From IMG/VR virus record IMGVR_UViG_2526164666_000036, positions 1 through 16,022 of that record: DNA of 16,022 nt. The stretch is one strand, 5' to 3'. Under the pieces are notes generated by a model, which saw only the letters and a list, made by a program, of their open reading frames with translations, had not been told where the DNA came from and made no database searches. The position numbers and the translations under genes are program-made. Shown piece by piece: positions 1 to 15,701 of the stretch. This stretch comes from a virus (taxonomy: Duplodnaviria; Heunggongvirae; Uroviricota; Caudoviricetes). Positions within the stretch are counted from its first letter, which is position 1, and every line of letters starts with the position of its first letter.

Positions 1-675
1 CTACATTTTCGGGTTCTTCTGTAATGCAGCTTTAGTGCGCGCAATCAGGTCCTGATATAACGGTTTACCCACACCCCAGCGTGCCGAATCCTGGCTGGCC
101 CCCGTGTCCGCACTGAATGTCCCCTCCGCGCCCTGGGTGAATGCCGAACCACCACGACAGCATGGTACCAGCAGGATCCCCGCGTTATTCGGGATATACG
201 GGAGCAGTTTTTTGGCAATATGTAACCCCTGGCCGACACAGCCGTACTGCCCTTTGCTCAGGTCTGCCTTCGGATGATTCAGCGTACTCATATCCTGCAC
301 ATCATGCAGGCAGTGGTCAGCCGGGATGATGTCGTTATACGTACAACTCTCTCCACCCGGAGTTACCGTGCTGCGGCGCGCCAGCTGTTTAATGCGCGGA
401 TCCGGAGCATCGTAAGAATCCGGTAACGGAAGCCCTTCACCGTAGGCCATGCCGTTGGACTGTCCGGCAAGCACAACCACGTAGAACCAGTCCGGCTCAG
501 ATGAAGGGCCGACCTGTGGATCTCCTTCAATAGCCACCGCCTGCATCAGTGTGTACGGCGTAATGGCAACCGGTCCGCCATATGGCTGCCAGCCCTCTTT
601 CAGTTTGTGTGTCAGCTTTTCCGCAAGGTCTGACGGCGACGCCGCCCTGACAACATCATAATGTTTAATCGACAT
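1..675 (-). CDS. DUF1737 + SASA/SGNH-type sialate O-acetylesterase-like protein (prophage NanS-p-like), 224 aa, possibly a truncated form
   Basis: Minus-strand ORF, ATG at 675-673 preceded by GGGAGA. N-terminus MSIKHYDVVRAASPSDLAEKL resembles DUF1737; VVVLAGQSNGMAYGEG carries the GQSN serine block of SASA/SGNH esterases. TAG stop lies at bases 3-1, so the product is far shorter than typical ~600 aa NanS-p proteins. Confidence 0.65.
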   Translation of the reverse strand: MSIKHYDVVRAASPSDLAEKLTHKLKEGWQPYGGPVAITPYTLMQAVAIEGDPQVGPSSEPDWFYVVVLAGQSNGMAYGEGLPLPDSYDAPDPRIKQLARRSTVTPGGESCTYNDIIPADHCLHDVQDMSTLNHPKADLSKGQYGCVGQGLHIAKKLLPYIPNNAGILLVPCCRGGSAFTQGAEGTFSADTGASQDSARWGVGKPLYQDLIARTKAALQKNPKM

Positions 676-1058
676 CGAATTTCTCCCGTGTACAGGAACA
701 GAGTTAAAAAGCCGGAACCGGAATCAAATTACAGGATGGCCATCTGCCAGTGGCTGGTCGTAAAAAAAGGCCACGCCATGCGCAGCCGGAAATAAAGGGA
801 TAACGATGATAGTTTGAGAAAAACAGAAACGACACTTTTGTGGCAAAGCATGGTGCCGGGTGCCTCCCGGTGAGTTCAGCCCGGTGCCACTAAACCCTCG
901 TCATTCTCGTTTTGATAATCAGAGATTATACCGTCACCAGTCGCCCCTCCGCTCAGGGGGATTCACCATGCAGTTTTTTTCTAACAAATTCTCATCCGGG
1001 CAGACAACATTCAACTGACTTAATTGTGAGGTATGTAACATTCCTGTTGAACGGATAC

Positions 1059-1378: not shown

Positions 1379-2047
1379 TTACTGTGAAAATGCCGCCTTT
1401 TGTTTTAAACGTGTTATCGTCACGAACAATAAAGCCTCATTATCCAGCCGGTGAAAAATGTGTTTCATTGCAACCCAGTGGCCAGTAAATGTTTTGGACC
1501 AGTTTTTGGTTGTCACTCCCGCCAGTAATGCCAGCTCCTGGTATTCATAACCTTCCCCACCAAAAAGTTCTGCTTTTACTGCCTGCGCCGCCAGCCAGAT
1601 TAATTTTTTCAGGCGTTCCTGCGTTTTCCCTGCAATTTTTCTGGTACCAGATTGAGTATTAAATTCATTCCACGCCCACTGTGTTATCGCGATCTGATAT
1701 TCCCAACAAATGCTCTCGCTGTAACACCACAACAACCAGGCTTTATGATGTTCTTCAAGAGACAGAACAGCCCGCCGCCACGATGATGTCGAAAACTCAA
1801 CCGGACTGACCAGAGGAATTGATGTCCCCTTCGCCAGCGATTGCTTTCCCGGGATTGGTGGATTATCCCGCGTTATCATTTTTCCGGTCACCTCATCTCT
1901 GTACCGGATTTTTTTTCTCCTGTAACGCCCTGTATCGAACATGGCATTCTCCTGCCAGGCTTCAAGCTGACCTTTTGTTGCCTCACTCAAATCAGCGGTG
2001 GCGATAATGAGCTGCTCACGCACAAACTGTAAATACTGGTTATTCAT
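1379..2047 (-). CDS. Late-gene antitermination protein Q-like, 222 aa
   Basis: Sits immediately downstream of rusA and upstream of a consensus-like promoter plus terminators, the canonical Q position. ATG at 2047 overlaps the rusA stop (ATGA) and is preceded by GGAG; the ORF track's 2053 start is a GTG. Family assignment rests on position and size, not a recognised motif. Confidence 0.6.
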   Translation of the reverse strand: MNNQYLQFVREQLIIATADLSEATKGQLEAWQENAMFDTGRYRRKKIRYRDEVTGKMITRDNPPIPGKQSLAKGTSIPLVSPVEFSTSSWRRAVLSLEEHHKAWLLWCYSESICWEYQIAITQWAWNEFNTQSGTRKIAGKTQERLKKLIWLAAQAVKAELFGGEGYEYQELALLAGVTTKNWSKTFTGHWVAMKHIFHRLDNEALLFVTITRLKQKAAFSQ

Positions 2048-2403
2048 GCGCACTCCAGTTCTGTGATTTTTATCCCCAGCCGCCCACCAGAAACGAGCTG
2101 ACCGCGCACAATATTGATTTCATCAAACTGCTCGTCGTCTATGAGAAGTCCGGCATGCGTCAGCGCATCCAGTGGTGCTTTCAGGATATTGTCCAGGTCA
2201 CGACGACGTTTATCTGGTGGCTCTGCAATAATCTTTATCGCCAGCCGTCCGGACAGGTTTAATTTCAACCGCTGCTGGCGAACAATTAGTGCCACATCAC
2301 GGCGATAACGCTCACCGACTTTTGATACAAAATATGTGTTGCCACGACGTCGCCAGTAAGTATTCACCGTCGGCGGATAAGGCAAAACAAACTCTATACG
2401 CAT
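2044..2403 (-). CDS. rusA: Holliday junction resolvase RusA (crossover junction endodeoxyribonuclease)
   Basis: 119 aa; RusA-like layout including RRRDLDN and GGRL motifs; AAGAGG SD 6 nt upstream of ATG. Confidence 0.85.
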   Translation of the reverse strand: MRIEFVLPYPPTVNTYWRRRGNTYFVSKVGERYRRDVALIVRQQRLKLNLSGRLAIKIIAEPPDKRRRDLDNILKAPLDALTHAGLLIDDEQFDEINIVRGQLVSGGRLGIKITELECA

Positions 2404-2415
2404 CAGTAACCTCTT

Positions 2416-3465
2416 TTACCCGAGCACGCCGGTTGCAAAGGCGTGATCAAGAAAACGAAAAATTAAATCAACCTGGGAACCATGCTTTTCTTCGAACGCC
2501 AGCGGATCCGCATGAAGTTCGTTGTGATGTTCCCGGCACAACGGTAGCGTGAAAATATCGTGGGCCTTTGTTCCCATCCCTCCCTGACCGTGACCAATCA
2601 GGTGATGGGGATCGTCGGCTGGCTGACCACAACACGCACACGGCTGTGTCTTCACCCAGCGCGTATATTTCTCATTTACCCAACGGCGACGTTTAGGTCG
2701 CCTCATGAAAGATTCCGGAGACTCCGGATCAACGGTAACGCTGACCACTGTTTTTTCCTGTAGCGTGGTTTGTTGCTGGTGGACGTGAAGTGGCAGCGCA
2801 ATATTTTTTGTGCGCTGCTTCAGTATGCTGATGGCTGTCTGTTCTCCCGGTACGATGTCACTCTCACGGTATACGGAGCGGATTTTTTCCACCGGTAATC
2901 CCAGCGAACGACGCGCTACTGCCTCAGGTAGTGCATCCACCACCTGATTGCAGGCCGCCCACCAGGATAATTCGGCCAGCGATAACTCCCTCTCCTGCGT
3001 ACCGCTTATTGCGTGACGGATGACGTCAATCATCCAGGCAACCAGATTCTGCTGAGCAAGTTGATCGAGTGATTCTGATGTCTGGTCGCGCAGCTGGTTG
3101 TCACAGTGCCAGCACAACACCATCGCGCCGGCACCGTAACGGTGAATGACTGTTTCGCTGTGATGATAATCGCCGTGTAGCCACTGGCAGGATTTCACGT
3201 GACGTAATAACCAGTCAGACAGTGCACCAGCGCCACCCGCAGCACGGATCACCCGCTCATCGCTGAAAAATGGCAGTAGTGATTTATCTTCCGCCAGCGG
3301 CTGGTGAACGGCAGGTACAACCCCGGACGGCAGAGCTCGCATGCTTTTTGGTTCCGGCTCCACCAGTATTCTGCCGTTATGGAATGCTGACATTGATTCA
3401 CGGCCTGGCTTAACGATAACCAGACCGAGTTCCGGTACCAGAACAGGTCGAAGTAATACCCGCAC
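2416..3465 (-). CDS. DUF968 family prophage protein (YdfU-like) with C-terminal HNH-like Cys/His motif, 349 aa
   Basis: GTG start at 3465 preceded by GGAGG; C-terminus CACCG...DPHHLIGHG...LCREHHNELH resembles a His-Me finger. Length and position (between rusA and hokD) match Qin ydfU as I recall it. Confidence 0.7.
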   Translation of the reverse strand: MRVLLRPVLVPELGLVIVKPGRESMSAFHNGRILVEPEPKSMRALPSGVVPAVHQPLAEDKSLLPFFSDERVIRAAGGAGALSDWLLRHVKSCQWLHGDYHHSETVIHRYGAGAMVLCWHCDNQLRDQTSESLDQLAQQNLVAWMIDVIRHAISGTQERELSLAELSWWAACNQVVDALPEAVARRSLGLPVEKIRSVYRESDIVPGEQTAISILKQRTKNIALPLHVHQQQTTLQEKTVVSVTVDPESPESFMRRPKRRRWVNEKYTRWVKTQPCACCGQPADDPHHLIGHGQGGMGTKAHDIFTLPLCREHHNELHADPLAFEEKHGSQVDLIFRFLDHAFATGVLG

Positions 3466-3912: not shown

Positions 3913-4068
3913 TTACTCCTCAGGTTCGTAAGCTGTGAAGACAGCGACCTCCGTCTGGCCGGTTCGGATTCGTACCTCGCAGAGGTCTTTCCTCGTTACC
4001 AGTGCCGTCACTATGACGGTTAAACAGATGACGATCAGGGCGATTAACATCGCCTTTTGCTGCTTCAT
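3913..4068 (-). CDS. hokD: Hok-family type I toxin HokD (RelF), 51 aa
   Basis: Translation MKQQKAMLIALIVICLTVIVTALVTRKDLCEVRIRTGQTEVAVFTAYEPEE matches HokD as I recall it; AGGAG 9 nt upstream of ATG at 4068. The track ORF carries a 19-codon in-frame upstream extension. Confidence 0.9.
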   Translation of the reverse strand: MKQQKAMLIALIVICLTVIVTALVTRKDLCEVRIRTGQTEVAVFTAYEPEE

Positions 4069-4244
4069 AGCCTGCTTCTCCTTGCCTTTCGGCACGTAAG
4101 AGGCTAACCTACATGTGCAAGTCATAGATATGGCCTCAGATTAATGTTAAGCGTCTTGCCGGACGCGTAATGTTAACTGGGGCTTTTCTCTATCTGCCTT
4201 TTGGTGTTCATGCCTGAGACAGATAGCCTCAAGCACCCGCAGCA

Positions 4245-6469: not shown

Positions 6470-6762
6470 TGTGTCTTCTCCTGGAAAATAACTGCATGCC
6501 CCAGCTTCTCCGCCAGTGCCAGTTCCGCCTTAGCGCCTGCTGACCGCTGCCAGCCTTTCAGCATGTAAATCGCATCCACACAACGAATCATTGCCATGCA
6601 AATATCCATGTAGTGTGGCTGTGTCAGCCCGTCCGGAAGTACTGCCGGGGTTAAGACGGTATGCCCTTCCCGTTTCAGTTCCTCTTCCGCCTTGTGAAAC
6701 GCCTCACGGTTGAAATTTTCATATCCCGTCATTGGACCGGCAATATAAACTCTCACCCTCAC
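6466..6762 (-). CDS. DUF4406-like protein (nucleoside deoxyribosyltransferase-like fold), ~98 aa
   Basis: VYIAGPMTG...LTPAV...LKGWQRSAGAKAELALA pattern; GTG at 6762 overlaps the upstream stop (GTGA). The track's longer start at 6831 would overlap the upstream gene by 72 nt. Confidence 0.55.
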   Translation of the reverse strand: MRVRVYIAGPMTGYENFNREAFHKAEEELKREGHTVLTPAVLPDGLTQPHYMDICMAMIRCVDAIYMLKGWQRSAGAKAELALAEKLGHAVIFQEKTQ

Positions 6763-7151
6763 TCCATCACCTCCTGAAAGTTTCCCCGATAGAACGCCAG
6801 CACACGCTGCATAACTTCGCTCTGGCGGCACTCACGACAAATTATGTTCTGCCGTCTGTTGTAACGACGTATTTCTCCGTCAGGTAACTTTCGAATCAGT
6901 GTCGGGTCAGCAGCCTTCTCCGGTGTCTTACGCCATACGCGATACGCCTGCTCTGATGGAAATACCCCGCAACCAGAGAGCCAGACATCACCACTGGCCG
7001 CAAGCGCACCAGATAAACGACGAATAGCGGTCTTACTGACACCCGTTTTATCTGCCAGTTGTCGAAAAGTTTCTCGTCCGCTCAGGCGCACGAATTCCAC
7101 AATGCGCGCCTTCACTTCTTCCCGCTCTTCTGGTGTAAATTCTTTTGCCAT
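6759..7151 (-). CDS. Hypothetical HTH-containing phage protein, ~130 aa
   Basis: ATG at 7151 preceded by GGAGG 5 nt upstream (the track start at 7166 is TTG); helix-turn-helix-like stretch TFRQLADKTGVSKTAIRRL. Confidence 0.55.
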   Translation of the reverse strand: MAKEFTPEEREEVKARIVEFVRLSGRETFRQLADKTGVSKTAIRRLSGALAASGDVWLSGCGVFPSEQAYRVWRKTPEKAADPTLIRKLPDGEIRRYNRRQNIICRECRQSEVMQRVLAFYRGNFQEVME

Positions 7152-10130: not shown

Positions 10131-10395
10131 GAATCAAGCTCCTAGAAAGTGGTTGTGTTAACGTTTTGGTATCTTCCAGCTCGGGCCAAATATTCATCCA
10201 ATCAAAAGGCCTTAGTTGCTGACGTGTAACTTCACCATTACTGGCTCGCTCAATAAGGACACATAACGATGCCCCTAACACTTGACCTTTACTCAATGCC
10301 TTTCTTAGATAACCGATGCTGGTACCACACTCGCATGCAAACATACGCTGTTCATCTGACGAAAGAGAATTGAGAAATATTCTTAATTCTTCCAT
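10114..10395 (-). CDS. Cro-like HTH regulator (YdaS/DicC family), 93 aa
   Basis: HTH-like FACECGTSIGYLRKALS and IERASNGEV...LRP pattern; AAGGAG SD 5 nt upstream of ATG; divergent from the repressor gene. Confidence 0.7.
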   Translation of the reverse strand: MEELRIFLNSLSSDEQRMFACECGTSIGYLRKALSKGQVLGASLCVLIERASNGEVTRQQLRPFDWMNIWPELEDTKTLTQPLSRSLIHENQA

Positions 10396-10495
10396 AGCTA
10401 CTCCTTAGTAAACACAGCAAAGAATACCCACAGGTAAACAAAAGTCAATACCCACAGGTTGTTTACCTTGCGGTAATCGCATCTATTATTTACCT
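10396..10495. promoter_or_regulatory. Divergent immunity promoter/operator region
   Basis: Direct repeats AATACCCACAGGT at 10423-10435 and 10447-10459, plus TTTACCTATGGA at the repressor ATG. Minus strand carries TTGACT-16-TATTCT for the Cro-like gene. On the plus strand TATTAT (10484-10489) sits 6 nt before the repressor ATG with no SD, implying a leaderless mRNA. Confidence 0.55.
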
Positions 10496-10915
10496 ATGGA
10501 CAAATATGAATTTAGACGACAGCAACTCATCAAAATTCGTGATGAGAAATGCGATGGTAAAGCGGTTAACGTGGCCAGAAAGATCGGGCGCGAGCCTTCT
10601 TATGTATCAAGAATGTTGTACCCAGAGGGGAAAAAGGGAAAAAAACGGATCGCTGATGATATGGTGGAGATTATCGAAGAGTCCTTTGGGTTACCCCGGG
10701 GATGGATGGATGGTATCGTTTCATCATCAACGAACACAGCCTCCAGTTATGAAACAAGGGTTCTAACGCCACGACAACGTATTTTTTTAGATCTCTTAGA
10801 CGAACTGCCAGAAAGTGAAGCGGATAAATTATTAAAAACTCTTGAAGAGAAAAAACAGTATTACAATATGATCTACGAAGAAATCCGTAAAAAGAAAGCA
10901 CAAAACGCATCATAG
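10496..10915 (+). CDS. cI-type prophage repressor (DicA/RacR-like), 139 aa
   Basis: Divergent from the Cro-like gene; N-terminal HTH region; C-terminal LPESEADKLLKTLEEKK resembles the DicA C-terminus as I recall it. Confidence 0.75.
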   Translation: MDKYEFRRQQLIKIRDEKCDGKAVNVARKIGREPSYVSRMLYPEGKKGKKRIADDMVEIIEESFGLPRGWMDGIVSSSTNTASSYETRVLTPRQRIFLDLLDELPESEADKLLKTLEEKKQYYNMIYEEIRKKKAQNAS

Positions 10916-10955
10916 CTCACCAAACAACTAGTCACCAGTTAAGACACCGCAAAAA

Positions 10956-10997
10956 TTTACCCATGGGTATTTACTTTTTAAATACCTATGGGTATCC
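10956..10997. promoter_or_regulatory. Two palindromic operator-like sites at the early operon promoter
   Basis: TTTACCCATGGGTATTT (10956-10972, perfect palindrome TACCCATGGGTA) and AATACCTATGGGTATCC (10981-10997), same half-site as the divergent region; overlap candidate -35/-10 hexamers. Confidence 0.5.
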
Positions 10998-11180
10998 TTC
11001 TTTTCATACCAACCCACCCCGCCCCACAGAATGCAGGGCAATACTTCGAGTTACCAGGCAGTGGTCAGGGGTTAAGTAGCCAGCCCGAGGCGTAAGAACA
11101 TGACGGCAGGGTTCAACTTTAATAACTATGCAGCAGGTTTTTGTTCCGCTACCCCGGCGTTAAGGGGAAATGAGGTCAGC

Positions 11181-11333
11181 ATGGATACTATCGATCTTGG
11201 CAACAACGAATCTCTGGTATGTGGCGTGTTTCCCAATCAGGACGGCACGTTTACCGCGATGACGTATACCAGAAGCAAAACGTTTAAAACGGAAGCTGGC
11301 GCGCGTCGCTGGTTAGCAAGAAACTCTGACTGA
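11181..11333 (+). CDS. Small protein YdfA/YdaF-like, 50 aa
   Basis: ATG at 11181 with GAGG 5 nt upstream; MDTIDLGNNESLV... resembles Qin YdfA as I recall it; first gene after the repressor. Confidence 0.55.
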   Translation: MDTIDLGNNESLVCGVFPNQDGTFTAMTYTRSKTFKTEAGARRWLARNSD

Positions 11334-11344
11334 TGAGGTTGACG

Positions 11345-11983
11345 ATGGAATTTAAAGATTTACCTCCTTCAATCCAGGAGATTGCAGCACACACACTTCG
11401 TCATCGTCTGAACGAACTTGAATTGGAATCGGTAACGAAAAAAGACACTGATAATATGGCTCGTAATGTGCGCGATGCGTTTACCGGATTGTATTTCTGT
11501 GCGTCTATAAATAAACACGACTCAGAGAGTGTGGCAAATAAAATTGCAGAAACGACAGCGCAAAACATCAATACGAAACCAACGGAAGAAGAAATTGATC
11601 AGTTTGCTCATGATGCTGGTTTAAAAAACAAGAAAGAAAAATCGCCATATGCGGGGAACATGTTTGTTTATGACAATCTCATCAGAATTCGTGGCGAAAT
11701 TCCGGCGGAATACCTGGCAAGAGTCCATCAGGCATTGCTTAAAAATTTGGAAACAGAATTATTTGATGGCAACACTAACGGTTTCTTCATGGTATCAGGC
11801 CTTGAGAAAGACTGGGATGCAGAAAAACGCTGGAATGTTGCTACATGGTTATTCAGTAACAGAGCCGCTGCACTGGAAGCTTCGGCATGTATTTGCGGCC
11901 TGTTCTTAACAGACCACAAATATAATCTGGATGTGTACAGTTATATTTACGCTGAACACGGTCCACTCTGGATTGACTGGTAA
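11345..11983 (+). CDS. Hypothetical protein of unknown function, 212 aa
   Basis: ATG at 11345 with GAGG 7 nt upstream (alternative ATG at 11333 overlapping the upstream stop); no motif I recognise. Confidence 0.6.
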   Translation: MEFKDLPPSIQEIAAHTLRHRLNELELESVTKKDTDNMARNVRDAFTGLYFCASINKHDSESVANKIAETTAQNINTKPTEEEIDQFAHDAGLKNKKEKSPYAGNMFVYDNLIRIRGEIPAEYLARVHQALLKNLETELFDGNTNGFFMVSGLEKDWDAEKRWNVATWLFSNRAAALEASACICGLFLTDHKYNLDVYSYIYAEHGPLWIDW

Positions 11984-12531
11984 TTATAAGGAAACACCAG
12001 CAGGGCCGCGGCGACCAACAGAACGATTAAAATCAATAATGCCATTATAAAGGACATTATTTAATTTATCGTCGAATGCTGATTCTGTGAGCCTCAACTC
12101 TGAATGAGTTTTTAATAACCCTGATTGCCTGAGTTGATTTACCAGGCATTCAATCTGTTTTTCAATAAGCGGATTTCTTTTTTGTTTGGCATTTTATCCT
12201 CCATTGAGGTTCTGGGTTAAAAATGGAGACCAACACGCTGTCACGTGTGGTCGTGCGCCGGACACGGATAAGAATCCGGTACTGACAGTTTACTGAAAGG
12301 ATATTTCCCTGAAAAGTCAGTGCATAACGCGAAAGCGTACGGCGAAGCTCTTTCCCTTAGAAGGCTTGTCGTTAGATTTCTTCGAACGTGCGCTTCCGGT
12401 TGTGGCACTCCGCGAAATGGCGCGGCGGTAAGTATGGCGGGGTTATTCCTTCCCCAGTTGAGGACACCGGGTTGTCAGGTTGACCATACGCTTAAGTGAC
12501 AACCCCGCTACAACGCCCTCTGTTATCAATA

Positions 12532-12589
12532 TTCTGGTGACATTTGGCGGTATCAGTTTTACTCCGTGACTGCTCTGCCGCCCTTTTTT
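12532..12589 (+). ncRNA. dicF: DicF small regulatory RNA
   Basis: TTCTGGTGACATTTGGCGGTATCAGTTTTACTCCGTGACTGCTCTGCCGCCCTTTTTT matches DicF as I recall it, apart from one or two changes near the 5' end; ends in its own GC-hairpin plus U-tract terminator; lies just upstream of dicB. Confidence 0.85.
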
Positions 12590-12759
12590 AAAAGTGAATT
12601 TTGTGATGCGGTGAATGCGGCTCAGCGCACGCGGAACAGTTAAAACCAAAAACAGTGTTATGGGTGGATTCTCTGTATCCGGCGTTAATTGTTAACTGGT
12701 TAACGTCACCTGGAGGCACCAGGCACCGCATCACAAAATTCATTGTTGAGGACGCGATA

Positions 12760-12948
12760 ATGGAAAAGTTATCATGTAATGCCAGCACGTCTGAACTTCG
12801 TTTCGAAATTGGCGTTATCACTGGAGACAAAACATTTATTGAAGACGCCATTAAGCAGAGAAAACTCGAGCAGGACCTGTTAAATGAAGTATGCATTCCT
12901 TCAATGCTGGCTCGTCTGGACCTGCTGCAAAAAGGATATAAACAATGA
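12760..12948 (+). CDS. dicB: Cell division inhibitor DicB, 62 aa
   Basis: ATG at 12760 with GAGGA upstream; shares FEIGV, EDAI, SMLARL blocks with K-12 DicB; directly downstream of DicF. Confidence 0.8.
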   Translation: MEKLSCNASTSELRFEIGVITGDKTFIEDAIKQRKLEQDLLNEVCIPSMLARLDLLQKGYKQ

Positions 12949-13136
12949 ATACAACATTTGCACTCGTTCTGACAGTTTATCTTGTTTCCGGCGAATCTCT
13001 TGAGCTGGTGACTGGCTTATACGGTTCAATGAAAGAATGCATGGCTGCAGCAGCAGAACAAAAAATTCCCGGTAACTGTTATCCGGTAGATAAAACTACT
13101 CACACTAATAATAACGAAATACCGGCAGGACTTTAA
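12945..13136 (+). CDS. ydfD: YdfD-like small membrane/lysis protein, 63 aa
   Basis: ATG overlaps the dicB stop (ATGA); AAGGA SD; hydrophobic N-terminus TTFALVLTVYLVSG; same position as ydfD in Qin. Confidence 0.65.
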   Translation: MNTTFALVLTVYLVSGESLELVTGLYGSMKECMAAAAEQKIPGNCYPVDKTTHTNNNEIPAGL

Positions 13137-13229
13137 AACAGCACCGTAATTAATATCCGGTTTCATTTTTATATGCCAGCAATGGCAGGGATTTGTTCAC
13201 CCTTAAATCTGTAATGAGGTTAAAACAAA

Positions 13230-15701
13230 ATGAGTAAAGTCTTTATTTGCGCCGCCATTCCGGACGAACAGGCAATAAAAGAAGAGGGCGCAGTTGCTGT
13301 AGCCACTGCCATTGAAGCCGGTGATGAACGCCGCGCCCGTGCCAAATTTACCTGGCAATTCCTGGAGCAATATCCTGCTGCTCAGGACTGCGCTTATAAA
13401 TTTCTTGTCTGCGAAGATAAACCTGGCATGCCCCGCCCTGCTATCGACTCCTGGGATACCGAATATATGCAGGAAAACCGCTGGGATGAGGAATCCGCTT
13501 CCTTTATTCCGGTCGAACCAGAATCCGATCCTATTAACGTCAATTTTGACAAGCTGTCCCTTGAAGTACAGAACGCGGTCCTGGTTAAGTTCGGTACATG
13601 TGAAAACATCACCGTTGATATGGCGATTGACGCGCAGGAATTACTGCAAGAAGACGTGGCTACCTTTGACGGACATATCGTTGAAGCACTGATGAAAACG
13701 CCTGAAATTAACGCTATGTATCCGGAACGCAAACTGTTCGCTATCGGATGGGTTAAACACAAATGTAAGCCGGGTACCAAATGGCCCGAAATTCAGGCTG
13801 AATTACGTAACTGGAAAAAACGGCAGGACGCAGAGCGCAAAGAGACTGGAAAATACACGTCTGTTGTTGATCTTGCCCGCGCCAAAGCCAACCGACAGCA
13901 CACTGAAAACCCAGCAGAAAAAATCCCTCCTGTAACTGCCGCCATTCATCGCGAATACAAGCAGACATGGAAAACCCTGGACAGGGAGCTGGCCTACTAT
14001 CTCTGGCCTGGTGATGCGGATGCCGGAAACATTGACGGCAGCATCCTTCGCTGGGCTAAAAATGAAGTTATCGCCAGAGATCGCGAAGACTGGAAGCGCA
14101 TCTCCGCATCAATGCGCAAACAACCTGATGCGCTTCGCTACAGCCGCCAGACTATTTTTGGCCTTGTCCGTGAACGTCCGATCGACATTCACAAAGACCC
14201 TGTGGCACTGAACAAATACATTACTGAATACCTGACTACAAAGGGCGTGTTTGAAGATGAAGGAAGAAATCAGAGCGCAACTGATACTCTCTCGTCGCCA
14301 GTACCAGAAACTGATGCAGTGGAAACGGCAATTCAGGACAACGAAAAAACCGAATGCAAAGTGGAAGTCGAATCATCTGTAGAGCGTGAGGGGCCGTTCT
14401 ACTTCCTCTTCAGCGACAAGGATGGCGAAAAATACGGTCGTGCAAACAAACTTTCTGGTCTGAATAAGGCGCTGGCTGCAGGGGCTACTGAAATCACGAA
14501 AGAAGAATATTTTGCCCGCAAAAACGGTACATACTCAGGTTCACAACAAAATACTGGTGCATCTGACACGATCGCACAACCGGAGCCGGTAAAAGTTACC
14601 GCTGACGAAGTAAACAAAATTATGCAGGCAGCCAATATCAGCCAGCCTGACGCCGATAAGTTGCTTGCTGTATCACGTGGTGAATTTGTTGCAGGGATTA
14701 GCGACCCGAATGATCCGAAATGGGTGAAGGAGATTGAAACCCGCGATTCAGTGAATCAGAACCAGCAAGAAACGGAACAGAACGACCAGAAAGCGGAACA
14801 AAACAGCCCAAATGCGTTACAAAACGAGCCAGAAACGAAACAATCCGAACCAGTAGTGCAACAGGAACCGGAAAAAGTCTGCACCGCCTGCGGTCAGAGC
14901 GGTGGCGGCAACTGCCCCGATTGTGGCGCTGTCATGGGCAACGCAACATACCAGGAAACATTCGATGAAGAGAATCAGGTTGAAGCTCAGGAGAATGATC
15001 CGGAGGAAATGGAAGGCGCTGAACATCCACACAAGGAGAACACTGGCGGCAATCAGCATCACGCCAGCGATAGTGAAACTGGCGAGGCGGCAGATCCCTT
15101 AATTAAGGTGAATGGTCATCACAATCTCACATCCACCAGCAGAGCGGGGATTCATCTGATGATCGACATTGAAACCATGGGAAAAAATCCCAATGCCGCG
15201 ATTATCTCAATAGGCGCAATATTTTTCGATCCACAAACCGGAGATATGGGACCGGAATTTAGCAAGACCATCGATCTGGATACTGCTGGCGGAGTTATTG
15301 ATCGTGACGTCATTAAATGGTGGCTGAAGCAATCACGTGAAGCGCAGTCTGCCATTCTGACCGATGAAATCCCGTTAGATGATGCACTACTGCAATTGCG
15401 GGAATTTATCGCCGAAAACTCCGGTGAATTTTTTGTTCAGGTCTGGGGAAATGGAGCCAACTTCGACAACGTGATTTTACGCCGTTCATACGAACGGCAG
15501 GGGATCCCCTGCCCCTGGCACTACCACAACGATCGCGATGTACGCACAATCGTTGAGCTAGGGAAAGCCATAGACTTCGATGCCAGAACAGCTATCCCAT
15601 TCGAAGGTGAGCGCCACAATGCACTTGATGACGCCCGTTACCAGGCAAAATACGTTTCAGCTATCTGGCAAAAACTGATCCCGAGTCAGGCTGATTTTTA
15701 A
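13230..15701 (+). CDS. Large prophage protein (YdfE-like N-terminus) with internal zinc ribbon and C-terminal DEDDh (DnaQ-like) 3'-5' exonuclease domain, 823 aa
   Basis: C-terminal motifs MIDIETMG (Exo I), GNGANFDNVIL (Exo II), HNALDDARYQA (Exo III); CTACG...CPDCG ribbon around 14878-14930; Q/E-rich low-complexity linker around 14755-14875. Confidence 0.8.
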   Translation: MSKVFICAAIPDEQAIKEEGAVAVATAIEAGDERRARAKFTWQFLEQYPAAQDCAYKFLVCEDKPGMPRPAIDSWDTEYMQENRWDEESASFIPVEPESDPINVNFDKLSLEVQNAVLVKFGTCENITVDMAIDAQELLQEDVATFDGHIVEALMKTPEINAMYPERKLFAIGWVKHKCKPGTKWPEIQAELRNWKKRQDAERKETGKYTSVVDLARAKANRQHTENPAEKIPPVTAAIHREYKQTWKTLDRELAYYLWPGDADAGNIDGSILRWAKNEVIARDREDWKRISASMRKQPDALRYSRQTIFGLVRERPIDIHKDPVALNKYITEYLTTKGVFEDEGRNQSATDTLSSPVPETDAVETAIQDNEKTECKVEVESSVEREGPFYFLFSDKDGEKYGRANKLSGLNKALAAGATEITKEEYFARKNGTYSGSQQNTGASDTIAQPEPVKVTADEVNKIMQAANISQPDADKLLAVSRGEFVAGISDPNDPKWVKEIETRDSVNQNQQETEQNDQKAEQNSPNALQNEPETKQSEPVVQQEPEKVCTACGQSGGGNCPDCGAVMGNATYQETFDEENQVEAQENDPEEMEGAEHPHKENTGGNQHHASDSETGEAADPLIKVNGHHNLTSTSRAGIHLMIDIETMGKNPNAAIISIGAIFFDPQTGDMGPEFSKTIDLDTAGGVIDRDVIKWWLKQSREAQSAILTDEIPLDDALLQLREFIAENSGEFFVQVWGNGANFDNVILRRSYERQGIPCPWHYHNDRDVRTIVELGKAIDFDARTAIPFEGERHNALDDARYQAKYVSAIWQKLIPSQADF

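Follow-up and report, generated by a model that had tools for sequence, protein, structure and literature searches.

The window, i.e., the whole stretch of 16,022 nucleotides that was analysed, carries the gene for the small RNA DicF followed on the same strand by dicB and a homologue of ydfD (Table 1). The surrounding genes comprise, in this order, those for a Q antiterminator, RusA, hok/sok and replication proteins, and then minus-strand YdaT/YdaS-like genes. The plus strand encodes a regulator of family phrog_5736, followed by a DUF1391/YdfA-like gene, a gene for a protein of 216 amino acids, the DicF leader, DicF, dicB, ydfD, a gene for an exonuclease of 823 amino acids and an excisionase gene. 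Lambdoid early-left operons are laid out in this way, and so is the Qin prophage of Escherichia coli K-12. The preliminary description of this DNA had placed the module inside a prophage early operon, and the repressor-type regulator upstream as well as the exonuclease and excisionase genes downstream bear this out. Two further features of the region are a near-perfect palindrome of 16 bp (TACCCATGGGTATTTA...TAAATACCTATGGGTA) between the repressor-type and the YdfA-like gene, which is followed by a T-rich stretch and may either terminate the repressor transcript or serve as an operator, and a convergent gene for a protein of 69 amino acids (phrog_4274), which has a strong GGAGGA ribosome-binding site and lies inside the early-left operon.

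Table 1 Positions of features in the window and of related RNA elements in other records. Numbering is that of the window unless another record is named.
Feature	Position	Strand	Description
Esterase gene	1-675	-	
STnc100 sRNA	812-1000	-	RF02076, 133.7 bits; between the Q gene and the start of the esterase gene
Q antiterminator gene	1379-2053	-	
hok/sok	4063-4238 and 3913-4125	-	Type I toxin-antitoxin; sok RF01794, 115 bits; hokD annotated in a near-identical genome
Repressor-type regulator	10496-10915	+	phrog_5736
Palindrome	10958-10994	+	Near-perfect, 16 bp
Convergent 69-aa gene	11984-12193	-	phrog_4274
DicF leader hairpin	12330-12398	+	Long imperfect hairpin with variable apex; in MFE and centroid folds
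Element A	12405-12525	+	Three-hairpin structured domain, 120 nt, directly 5' of DicF
DicF sRNA	12531-12583	+	RF00039, K-12 homology; U tract 12584-12589
Element C	12588-12746	+	Structured DicF-dicB spacer; 20-bp closing stem, three conserved hairpins, variable region
dicB	12760-12948	+	62 aa, PF05358
ydfD homologue	12945-13136	+	63 aa, PF07358/DUF1482
Hairpin downstream of ydfD	13174-13187	+	Small GC hairpin, then T-rich stretch; in the conserved ydfD-exonuclease spacer; terminator-like site in consensus scan
Exonuclease gene	13230-15701	+	823 aa, PF16473
kilS-spacer-kilR of Rac (L314)	2248-2503	-	NC_000913 1418247-1418502
Element A of P1 (L003)	2996-3113		ban-operon leader
Element A of P7 (L004)	1587-1707		ban-operon leader

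Lambdoid prophages from Shiga-toxin-type E. coli, among them O157:H7, O145, O103 and O111 strains, share 99.9% identity with the segment 11900-13300. This segment is matched at 99% or more by 141 RefSeq records, whose annotation includes dicB and a DUF1482 protein. In more than 25 RefSeq genomes with dicB annotated at the matching position, e.g., as DicB WP_000413705.1 in a 99.9%-identical genome, the sole difference is one T deleted from the window (T7>T6 at 12178-12183). The deletion lies outside DicF-dicB-ydfD; it frameshifts the convergent 69-aa gene, whose reading frame is unbroken in the RefSeq genomes of 99.9% identity. The dicBF cassette has been under study since about 1990. In line with the preliminary description, which had called the module known, it is an ordinary one, with dicB annotated in the near-identical relatives listed above, and the cassette is known to be multi-copy in enterohaemorrhagic E. 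coli (EHEC); four dicF copies have been described for EHEC strains (PMC7873438). To find a functional-looking copy of a long-studied cassette in an EHEC-type prophage is, in itself, of very little consequence. What is new is only mildly so and descriptive, i.e., the weakening of xylR pairing by the DicF allele, the reciprocal relation between the DicF-dicB spacer and STnc100, and element A.

DicF and its predicted targets

DicF was matched by RF00039 at 12532-12583 on the plus strand with 77.0 bits (E = 7e-16, cmscan). The match covers the complete model (positions 1-52) without a single non-canonical pair and lies well above the gathering score of 48 bits, which makes the RNA a member of the family. 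Homology to the 53-nt K-12 gene moves the start to 12531. The terminator hairpin (GGCGG...CCGCC, -15.9 kcal/mol) does not differ from that of K-12, and six T follow it. Altogether, 51 of the 53 positions are identical to K-12 DicF, the two exchanges being T1A (12531) and G12A (12542); from position 13 to position 53, terminator included, there is no difference. A slight deviation of the DicF 5' region from K-12 had been suspected beforehand and is fully accounted for by these two exchanges.

In K-12, DicF pairs through its 3' region with the ribosome-binding site of ftsZ, as confirmed by compensatory mutants, and through its 5' end with xylR (PMC5069750). Both differences fall into the xylR-pairing 5' region and not into the ftsZ-pairing region. 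A disrupting change in the ftsZ seed or the terminator of DicF is thus ruled out, because the alignment reveals no alteration in the 3' region, for which pairing with ftsZ has been demonstrated. The predicted pairing energies (RNAduplex) point in the same direction. For ftsZ (K-12 sequence from -60 to +30), the value for the window's DicF is -36.6 kcal/mol vs. -38.5 kcal/mol for K-12 DicF, and for xylR it is -27.9 vs. -33.7 kcal/mol. G12A introduces a C·A mismatch inside a predicted xylR duplex of 13 bp. On the basis of these calculations, the A12 allele should retain control of ftsZ and weaken that of xylR. If it does so, the several dicF copies of one EHEC genome need therefore not be equivalent.

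Position 12 is polymorphic. Among 97 canonical copies in the fetched loci it is mostly G, with A in 13 and T in four of them, while the rest of DicF, including the ftsZ-pairing half, is nearly invariant. The exact allele of the window occurs in four loci, counting the window itself and the near-identical L001. This pattern, a variable site in the xylR-pairing region beside a nearly invariant ftsZ-pairing half, is among the observations in favour of a different emphasis, namely that the main selected role of the cassette in a lysogen is protection from phages together with metabolic rewiring and that the division block is a side effect of full induction. Published K-12 work describes DicB-mediated exclusion of ManYZ-dependent phages and additional targets of DicF (PMC6832061; PMC10448788; PMC5069750). 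On the other hand, the weaker pairing predicted for A12 implies that xylR may be less affected by this particular allele. We consider such a primary role a possibility that deserves attention, although we would not bet on it; it is compatible with division inhibition as the main explanation and concerns the question of which effect matters in nature.

DicF-like sRNAs that share the same leader and spacer and have other bodies were encountered in an E. albertii locus (L131, about 6725-7000) and in four IMG/VR loci (L069, L034, L105 and L096). The E. albertii RNA keeps the 5' UUUCUGGUGA seed and has a short hairpin (GGCGGAAACGGAUAUCCGCC) without the ftsZ-pairing loop. In the RNAs of the IMG/VR group, seeds and hairpins are altered. 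When genome contigs were scanned with GGCGCGGCGGNAAGNATGGC, only E. albertii and E. ruysiae proved to be true matches among the four enterobacterial-type loci checked. The remaining loci are unrelated, stem mostly from GC-rich taxa and were taken as chance matches without inspection.

Integrity and divergence of dicB and ydfD

The dicB gene starts with ATG at 12760, ends with the stop codon at 12946-12948 and is preceded by a GAGGA Shine-Dalgarno sequence (12748-12752). Its product aligns from residue 1 to 62 with the complete PF05358 profile (1-62 of 62; 131.8 bits, E = 7e-39, cut-off 27). The YdfD-like protein matches PF07358/DUF1482 with 69.2 bits (E = 2.8e-19, cut-off 25). The ydfD gene has its own Shine-Dalgarno sequence (AAGGA, 12932-12936), and its ATG overlaps the dicB stop codon as ATGA (12945-12948), exactly as in K-12. 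No frameshift or premature stop is present in either reading frame. The presence of apparently intact DicF and DicB, with scores far above chance, and of a translationally coupled YdfD-like gene, all proposed in the preliminary description, is therefore corroborated.

At the amino acid level, DicB is 55% identical to its K-12 counterpart and YdfD 63%; at the nucleotide level the identity amounts to 72-75%. For the two genes, dS was estimated at about 0.5-0.7 and dN/dS at 0.35-0.65. The RNA of leader, DicF and spacer, unlike the diverged DicB and YdfD, is about 96-97% identical to K-12. Positive selection as the source of the divergence finds no support in these dN/dS values. Together with the lack of stops and frameshifts they rather argue for continuing purifying selection on DicB and YdfD. 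Conserved RNA flanks beside diverged or swapped coding cassettes fit strong constraint on the RNA, and they equally fit recombination through the flanks.

The latter process is also part of a less favourable reading, in which the cassette is intact yet effectively silent, a passenger of mosaic recombination in which transcription would end at the DicF terminator, so that only DicF is made and dicB and ydfD are rarely if ever expressed. The contrast between dS in the coding parts and the nearly unchanged flanking RNA (~96% identity) would fit exchange of the cassette via these flanks. Moreover, the strong DicF terminator with its six U lies between the promoter and dicB, a read-through transcript was seen in K-12 only when RNase E was inactivated (PMC10448788), and neither an N-like antiterminator gene nor a put-like RNA was found. 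Silence is, however, at odds with the purifying selection and the absence of stops and frameshifts in dicB and ydfD. Good Shine-Dalgarno sites and the start/stop coupling have also been retained, and the downstream exonuclease, excisionase and integrase genes, which rely on the same read-through, are intact. We thus regard a silent passenger as improbable.

K-12 DicB inhibits Z-ring formation in a MinC-dependent manner (PMC10448788). The K-12 record labels ydfD 'lysis protein'. By analogy, the diverged DicB/YdfD pair and the present DicF allele would behave like their K-12 counterparts. Equal potency is an assumption because of the identities of only 55 and 63%; the proteins are far from those of K-12, and results obtained with the latter should not be transferred to them without a test. 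With this qualification we are highly confident that 12532-13136 holds an intact dicBF division-inhibition cassette in the lambdoid early-left operon of an enterohaemorrhagic-type E. coli prophage, one that would act as in K-12. Derepression of the operon would, judged by homology, be expected to lead to filamentation.

Structured RNA on both sides of DicF

More than one quarter of 12532-13136, namely 12584-12759, is conserved structured RNA and not plain spacer. This was overlooked in the preliminary description, which contains none of the structured RNA on either side of DicF. On the 5' side, the leader forms a long hairpin with a stem base that is conserved with respect to K-12 and shows one-sided, pair-preserving changes, and an apex that is only 54% identical. 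An RNase III-dependent DicF species of 190 nt has been published (PMC10448788). Such a species, when ending at the DicF terminator, would begin at ~12395-12400, i.e., at the 3' base of the hairpin. By this mapping, cleavage of the hairpin by RNase III probably creates the 5' end of the ~190-nt DicF precursor.

Between this hairpin and DicF lies element A, embedded in a region (12386-12530) that is about 96.5% identical to K-12. In an alignment of 20 variants (A6), four out of 23 pairs exhibit compensatory changes. Hairpin 2 covaries (GGGG/CCCC, UGGG/CCCA, CAGGUG/CACCUG), and hairpin 3 (GGGUUGUCA/UGACAACCC) carries a loop of 19 nt (GGUUGACCAUACGCUUAAG) that is nearly invariant. A search of the window for a target of this loop returned no complementary site except the loop itself. 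The covariance model built for element A (R2) matched the window, the Qin prophage of K-12 and the P1/P7 ban-operon leaders only, and no Rfam family was hit at E<=10. Two candidate identities were rejected: ARAGORN finds nothing in the window, which speaks against a tRNA- or tmRNA-like origin, and a small peptide (ATG GCG GGG ...) is not plausible, as the variable hairpin shifts length and frame among copies. Element A always resides just before a terminator and could influence read-through or sRNA maturation.

On the 3' side, the DicF-dicB spacer (element C) has a length of 176 nt. It folds into a multi-branch structure (MFE z-score -5.3), and its closing stem consists of 20 bp formed by 12594-12613 with 12724-12743. 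From 92 distinct spacer copies collected from viral contigs, 23 diverse representatives were aligned. Over 26 consensus pairs, 99% of the cells are paired, and eight pairs show changes on both sides. The observed covariation score was reached by none of 500 shuffles, and pairing dropped to 26-40% when partner columns were slid as a control. The covariance model trained on spacer copies only (R1) yields 172 bits at the spacer of the window. In the MFE fold, the dicB Shine-Dalgarno sequence is located at the base of the extended spacer stem.

The 72-nt form of DicF is a product of RNase III (PMC5069750). In the window, an RNA of this length would end at 12602, within the 5' arm of the spacer closing stem. 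The stem is thus a probable RNase III site that would give rise to 72-nt DicF as well as to the 5' end of the dicB mRNA. The two long predicted stems thereby coincide with the positions expected from the published species of 190 and 72 nt. Note that the RNase III sites were placed through these product sizes and not through the '813/814' numbering used in PMC10448788.

A relationship of the spacer to a known RNA emerged from comparison with Rfam. STnc100 (RF02076) matches the spacer via model positions 21-154 with 37.4 bits (E = 3e-6), below the gathering score of 47. Conversely, R1 matches the window's own STnc100 sRNA (832-984, minus strand) with 50.3 bits (E = 2e-13). On account of these reciprocal matches and the score below the gathering score, the spacer is related to STnc100 and is not a member of RF02076. 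With the STnc100/PasD prophage sRNAs it shares the architecture and the motifs GGUGAAU... and CACCnGGAGGCACCnGGCACC. It differs in location from STnc100, which follows the Q antiterminator gene and stands at the head of the late operon. A put-type antiterminator was rejected for element A and the spacer, as neither has similarity to the HK022 immunity region (blastn, word size 7); R1 and R2 likewise did not match the HK022 locus. As conserved structured RNAs with counterparts in Rac, P1/P7 and STnc100, the spacer and the DicF leader are worth definition as Rfam families, which would also improve prophage annotation.

Proposed course of expression and the same RNA elements in other prophages

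The following scheme takes processing, target pairing and protein functions from experiments in K-12 and combines them with the integrity, homology, RNA structure and context observed in the window. Upon relief of the repressor, a long transcript would proceed from a PL-like promoter through the YdfA-like and 216-aa genes into the structured leader. RNase III would cut the long leader hairpin near 12395, and RNase E would cut the AU-rich linker just 5' of 12531. The 3' end of DicF would be set either by its own terminator (~12584-12589) or by RNase III, which would cut the 20-bp spacer stem (~12602), and DicF would be released. Its unchanged 3' half would then pair with the ftsZ ribosome-binding site, leading to less FtsZ synthesis. 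From transcripts that extend past the DicF terminator, dicB and, by translational coupling, ydfD would be expressed. DicB would bring MinC to the septum, such that Z rings are blocked, and YdfD would act as a small membrane lysis protein. That transcription beyond the terminator suffices for dicB and ydfD is inferred here. The strong DicF terminator ahead of dicB and the small convergent gene within the operon speak against the scheme. A consensus scan for promoters and terminators across 10300-13300 yielded no more sites than shuffled sequences and no operon promoter that could be assigned with confidence; the DicF terminator, with its long loop, escaped the scan for that reason.

The arrangement closely resembles that of Qin in K-12 (ydfABC-dicF-dicB-ydfD-ydfE), where dicF, a 176-nt structured spacer, dicB and ATGA-coupled ydfD are likewise followed by an exonuclease gene and where the element A leader and the spacer are about 96.5% identical to those of the window. 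Differences concern the genes further upstream, with ydfB/ydfC in Qin and the 216-aa gene plus the convergent 69-aa gene in the window, and the repressor, which is DicA in Qin and belongs to another family in the window (phrog_5736, no Pfam HTH match). The Rac prophage of K-12 possesses an annotated ncRNA, kilS, which is a DicF-like terminator sRNA, followed directly by the same spacer structure (R1, 147 bits) and the division inhibitor gene kilR. In contrast to the window, KilR is unrelated to DicB, kilS has a different seed and hairpin, and element A is absent. Two unrelated division inhibitors, DicB and the FtsZ inhibitor KilR, are thus found behind the same RNA leader.

In P1 and P7, the ban leader has element A (R2, 103-107 bits) ahead of a terminator, and the spacer structure (R1, 124-147 bits) occurs further downstream, right in front of tciA/terB. 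The P1 record names the region 'dicF-like region', and element A of P1 is situated directly downstream of the annotated C1-controlled promoter Pban. Both differ from the window in several respects: there is no canonical DicF and a DicF 5'-like sequence is instead contained in a short terminator hairpin, tRNA genes separate element A from the spacer structure, and the phages are plasmid prophages and not lambdoid. Lambda Kil is a small host-killing and division-blocking function of the PL operon, whose gene has the immunity region on one side and the recombination/excision genes on the other. It is comparable in its early-left operon placement; it differs in that it has no known sequence relationship to the present system and no known sRNA partner.

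In the loci that were fetched, a sample biased by the use of patterns from these very elements, the spacer structure precedes unrelated genes at a distance of 29-41 nt from their start codons, based on the 46 distinct downstream proteins called. They include DicB alleles, KilR, the TerB-like TciA/TerB of P1 and P7, a membrane protein of 78 amino acids and a protein of 94 amino acids. A terminator hairpin with a U tract adjoins the structure in 103 of 141 distinct loci.

Such a distribution invites the idea that element A and the spacer go beyond a scaffold for processing and constitute a portable regulatory cassette that controls terminator read-through and/or translation of the toxic early gene that follows. 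The location ahead of unrelated genes and the adjoining terminators would be in accordance with it, as would the order kilS sRNA, spacer structure, kilR in Rac, the position of element A before a terminator in the window and in the ban leaders of P1 and P7, there directly behind Pban in P1, and the dicB Shine-Dalgarno sequence at the base of the extended stem in the MFE fold. Nevertheless, we deem such a control rather unlikely. The long stems are already explained by RNase III processing, neither element has sequence similarity to HK022 put, and the spacer cannot act on the DicF terminator, because termination precedes its transcription. The biased sampling of the loci likewise weakens the argument from distribution. 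A broader formulation leaves the mode of action less specified, and we put it forward tentatively, as an idea with somewhat less than an even chance: lambdoid prophages and P1/P7 would use a portable, constrained cassette, made up of a terminator-type sRNA (DicF, KilS or variants) and an RNase III-cleaved STnc100-like multi-stem leader, plus element A in the DicF lineage, to launch and gate a plugged-in toxic early gene such as dicB, kilR, tciA/terB or others.

Downstream of ydfD, the spacer that separates it from the exonuclease gene (13137-13229) shares 92% identity with K-12. Of the transcripts observed in K-12, the longest ends past ydfD (PMC10448788), and the small GC hairpin in this spacer is a possible 3' end of the dicF-dicB-ydfD transcript. 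The window prophage as a whole is far more complete than K-12 Qin. Its exonuclease gene is intact, whereas ydfE of K-12 is a pseudogene disrupted by IS2. At its C-terminus, the 823-aa protein matches PF16473, an Rv2179c-like 3'-5' exonuclease domain, with 223.6 bits, and its long acidic, low-complexity N-terminal and middle part gave no Pfam match. By position, it may be the full-length counterpart of ydfE.
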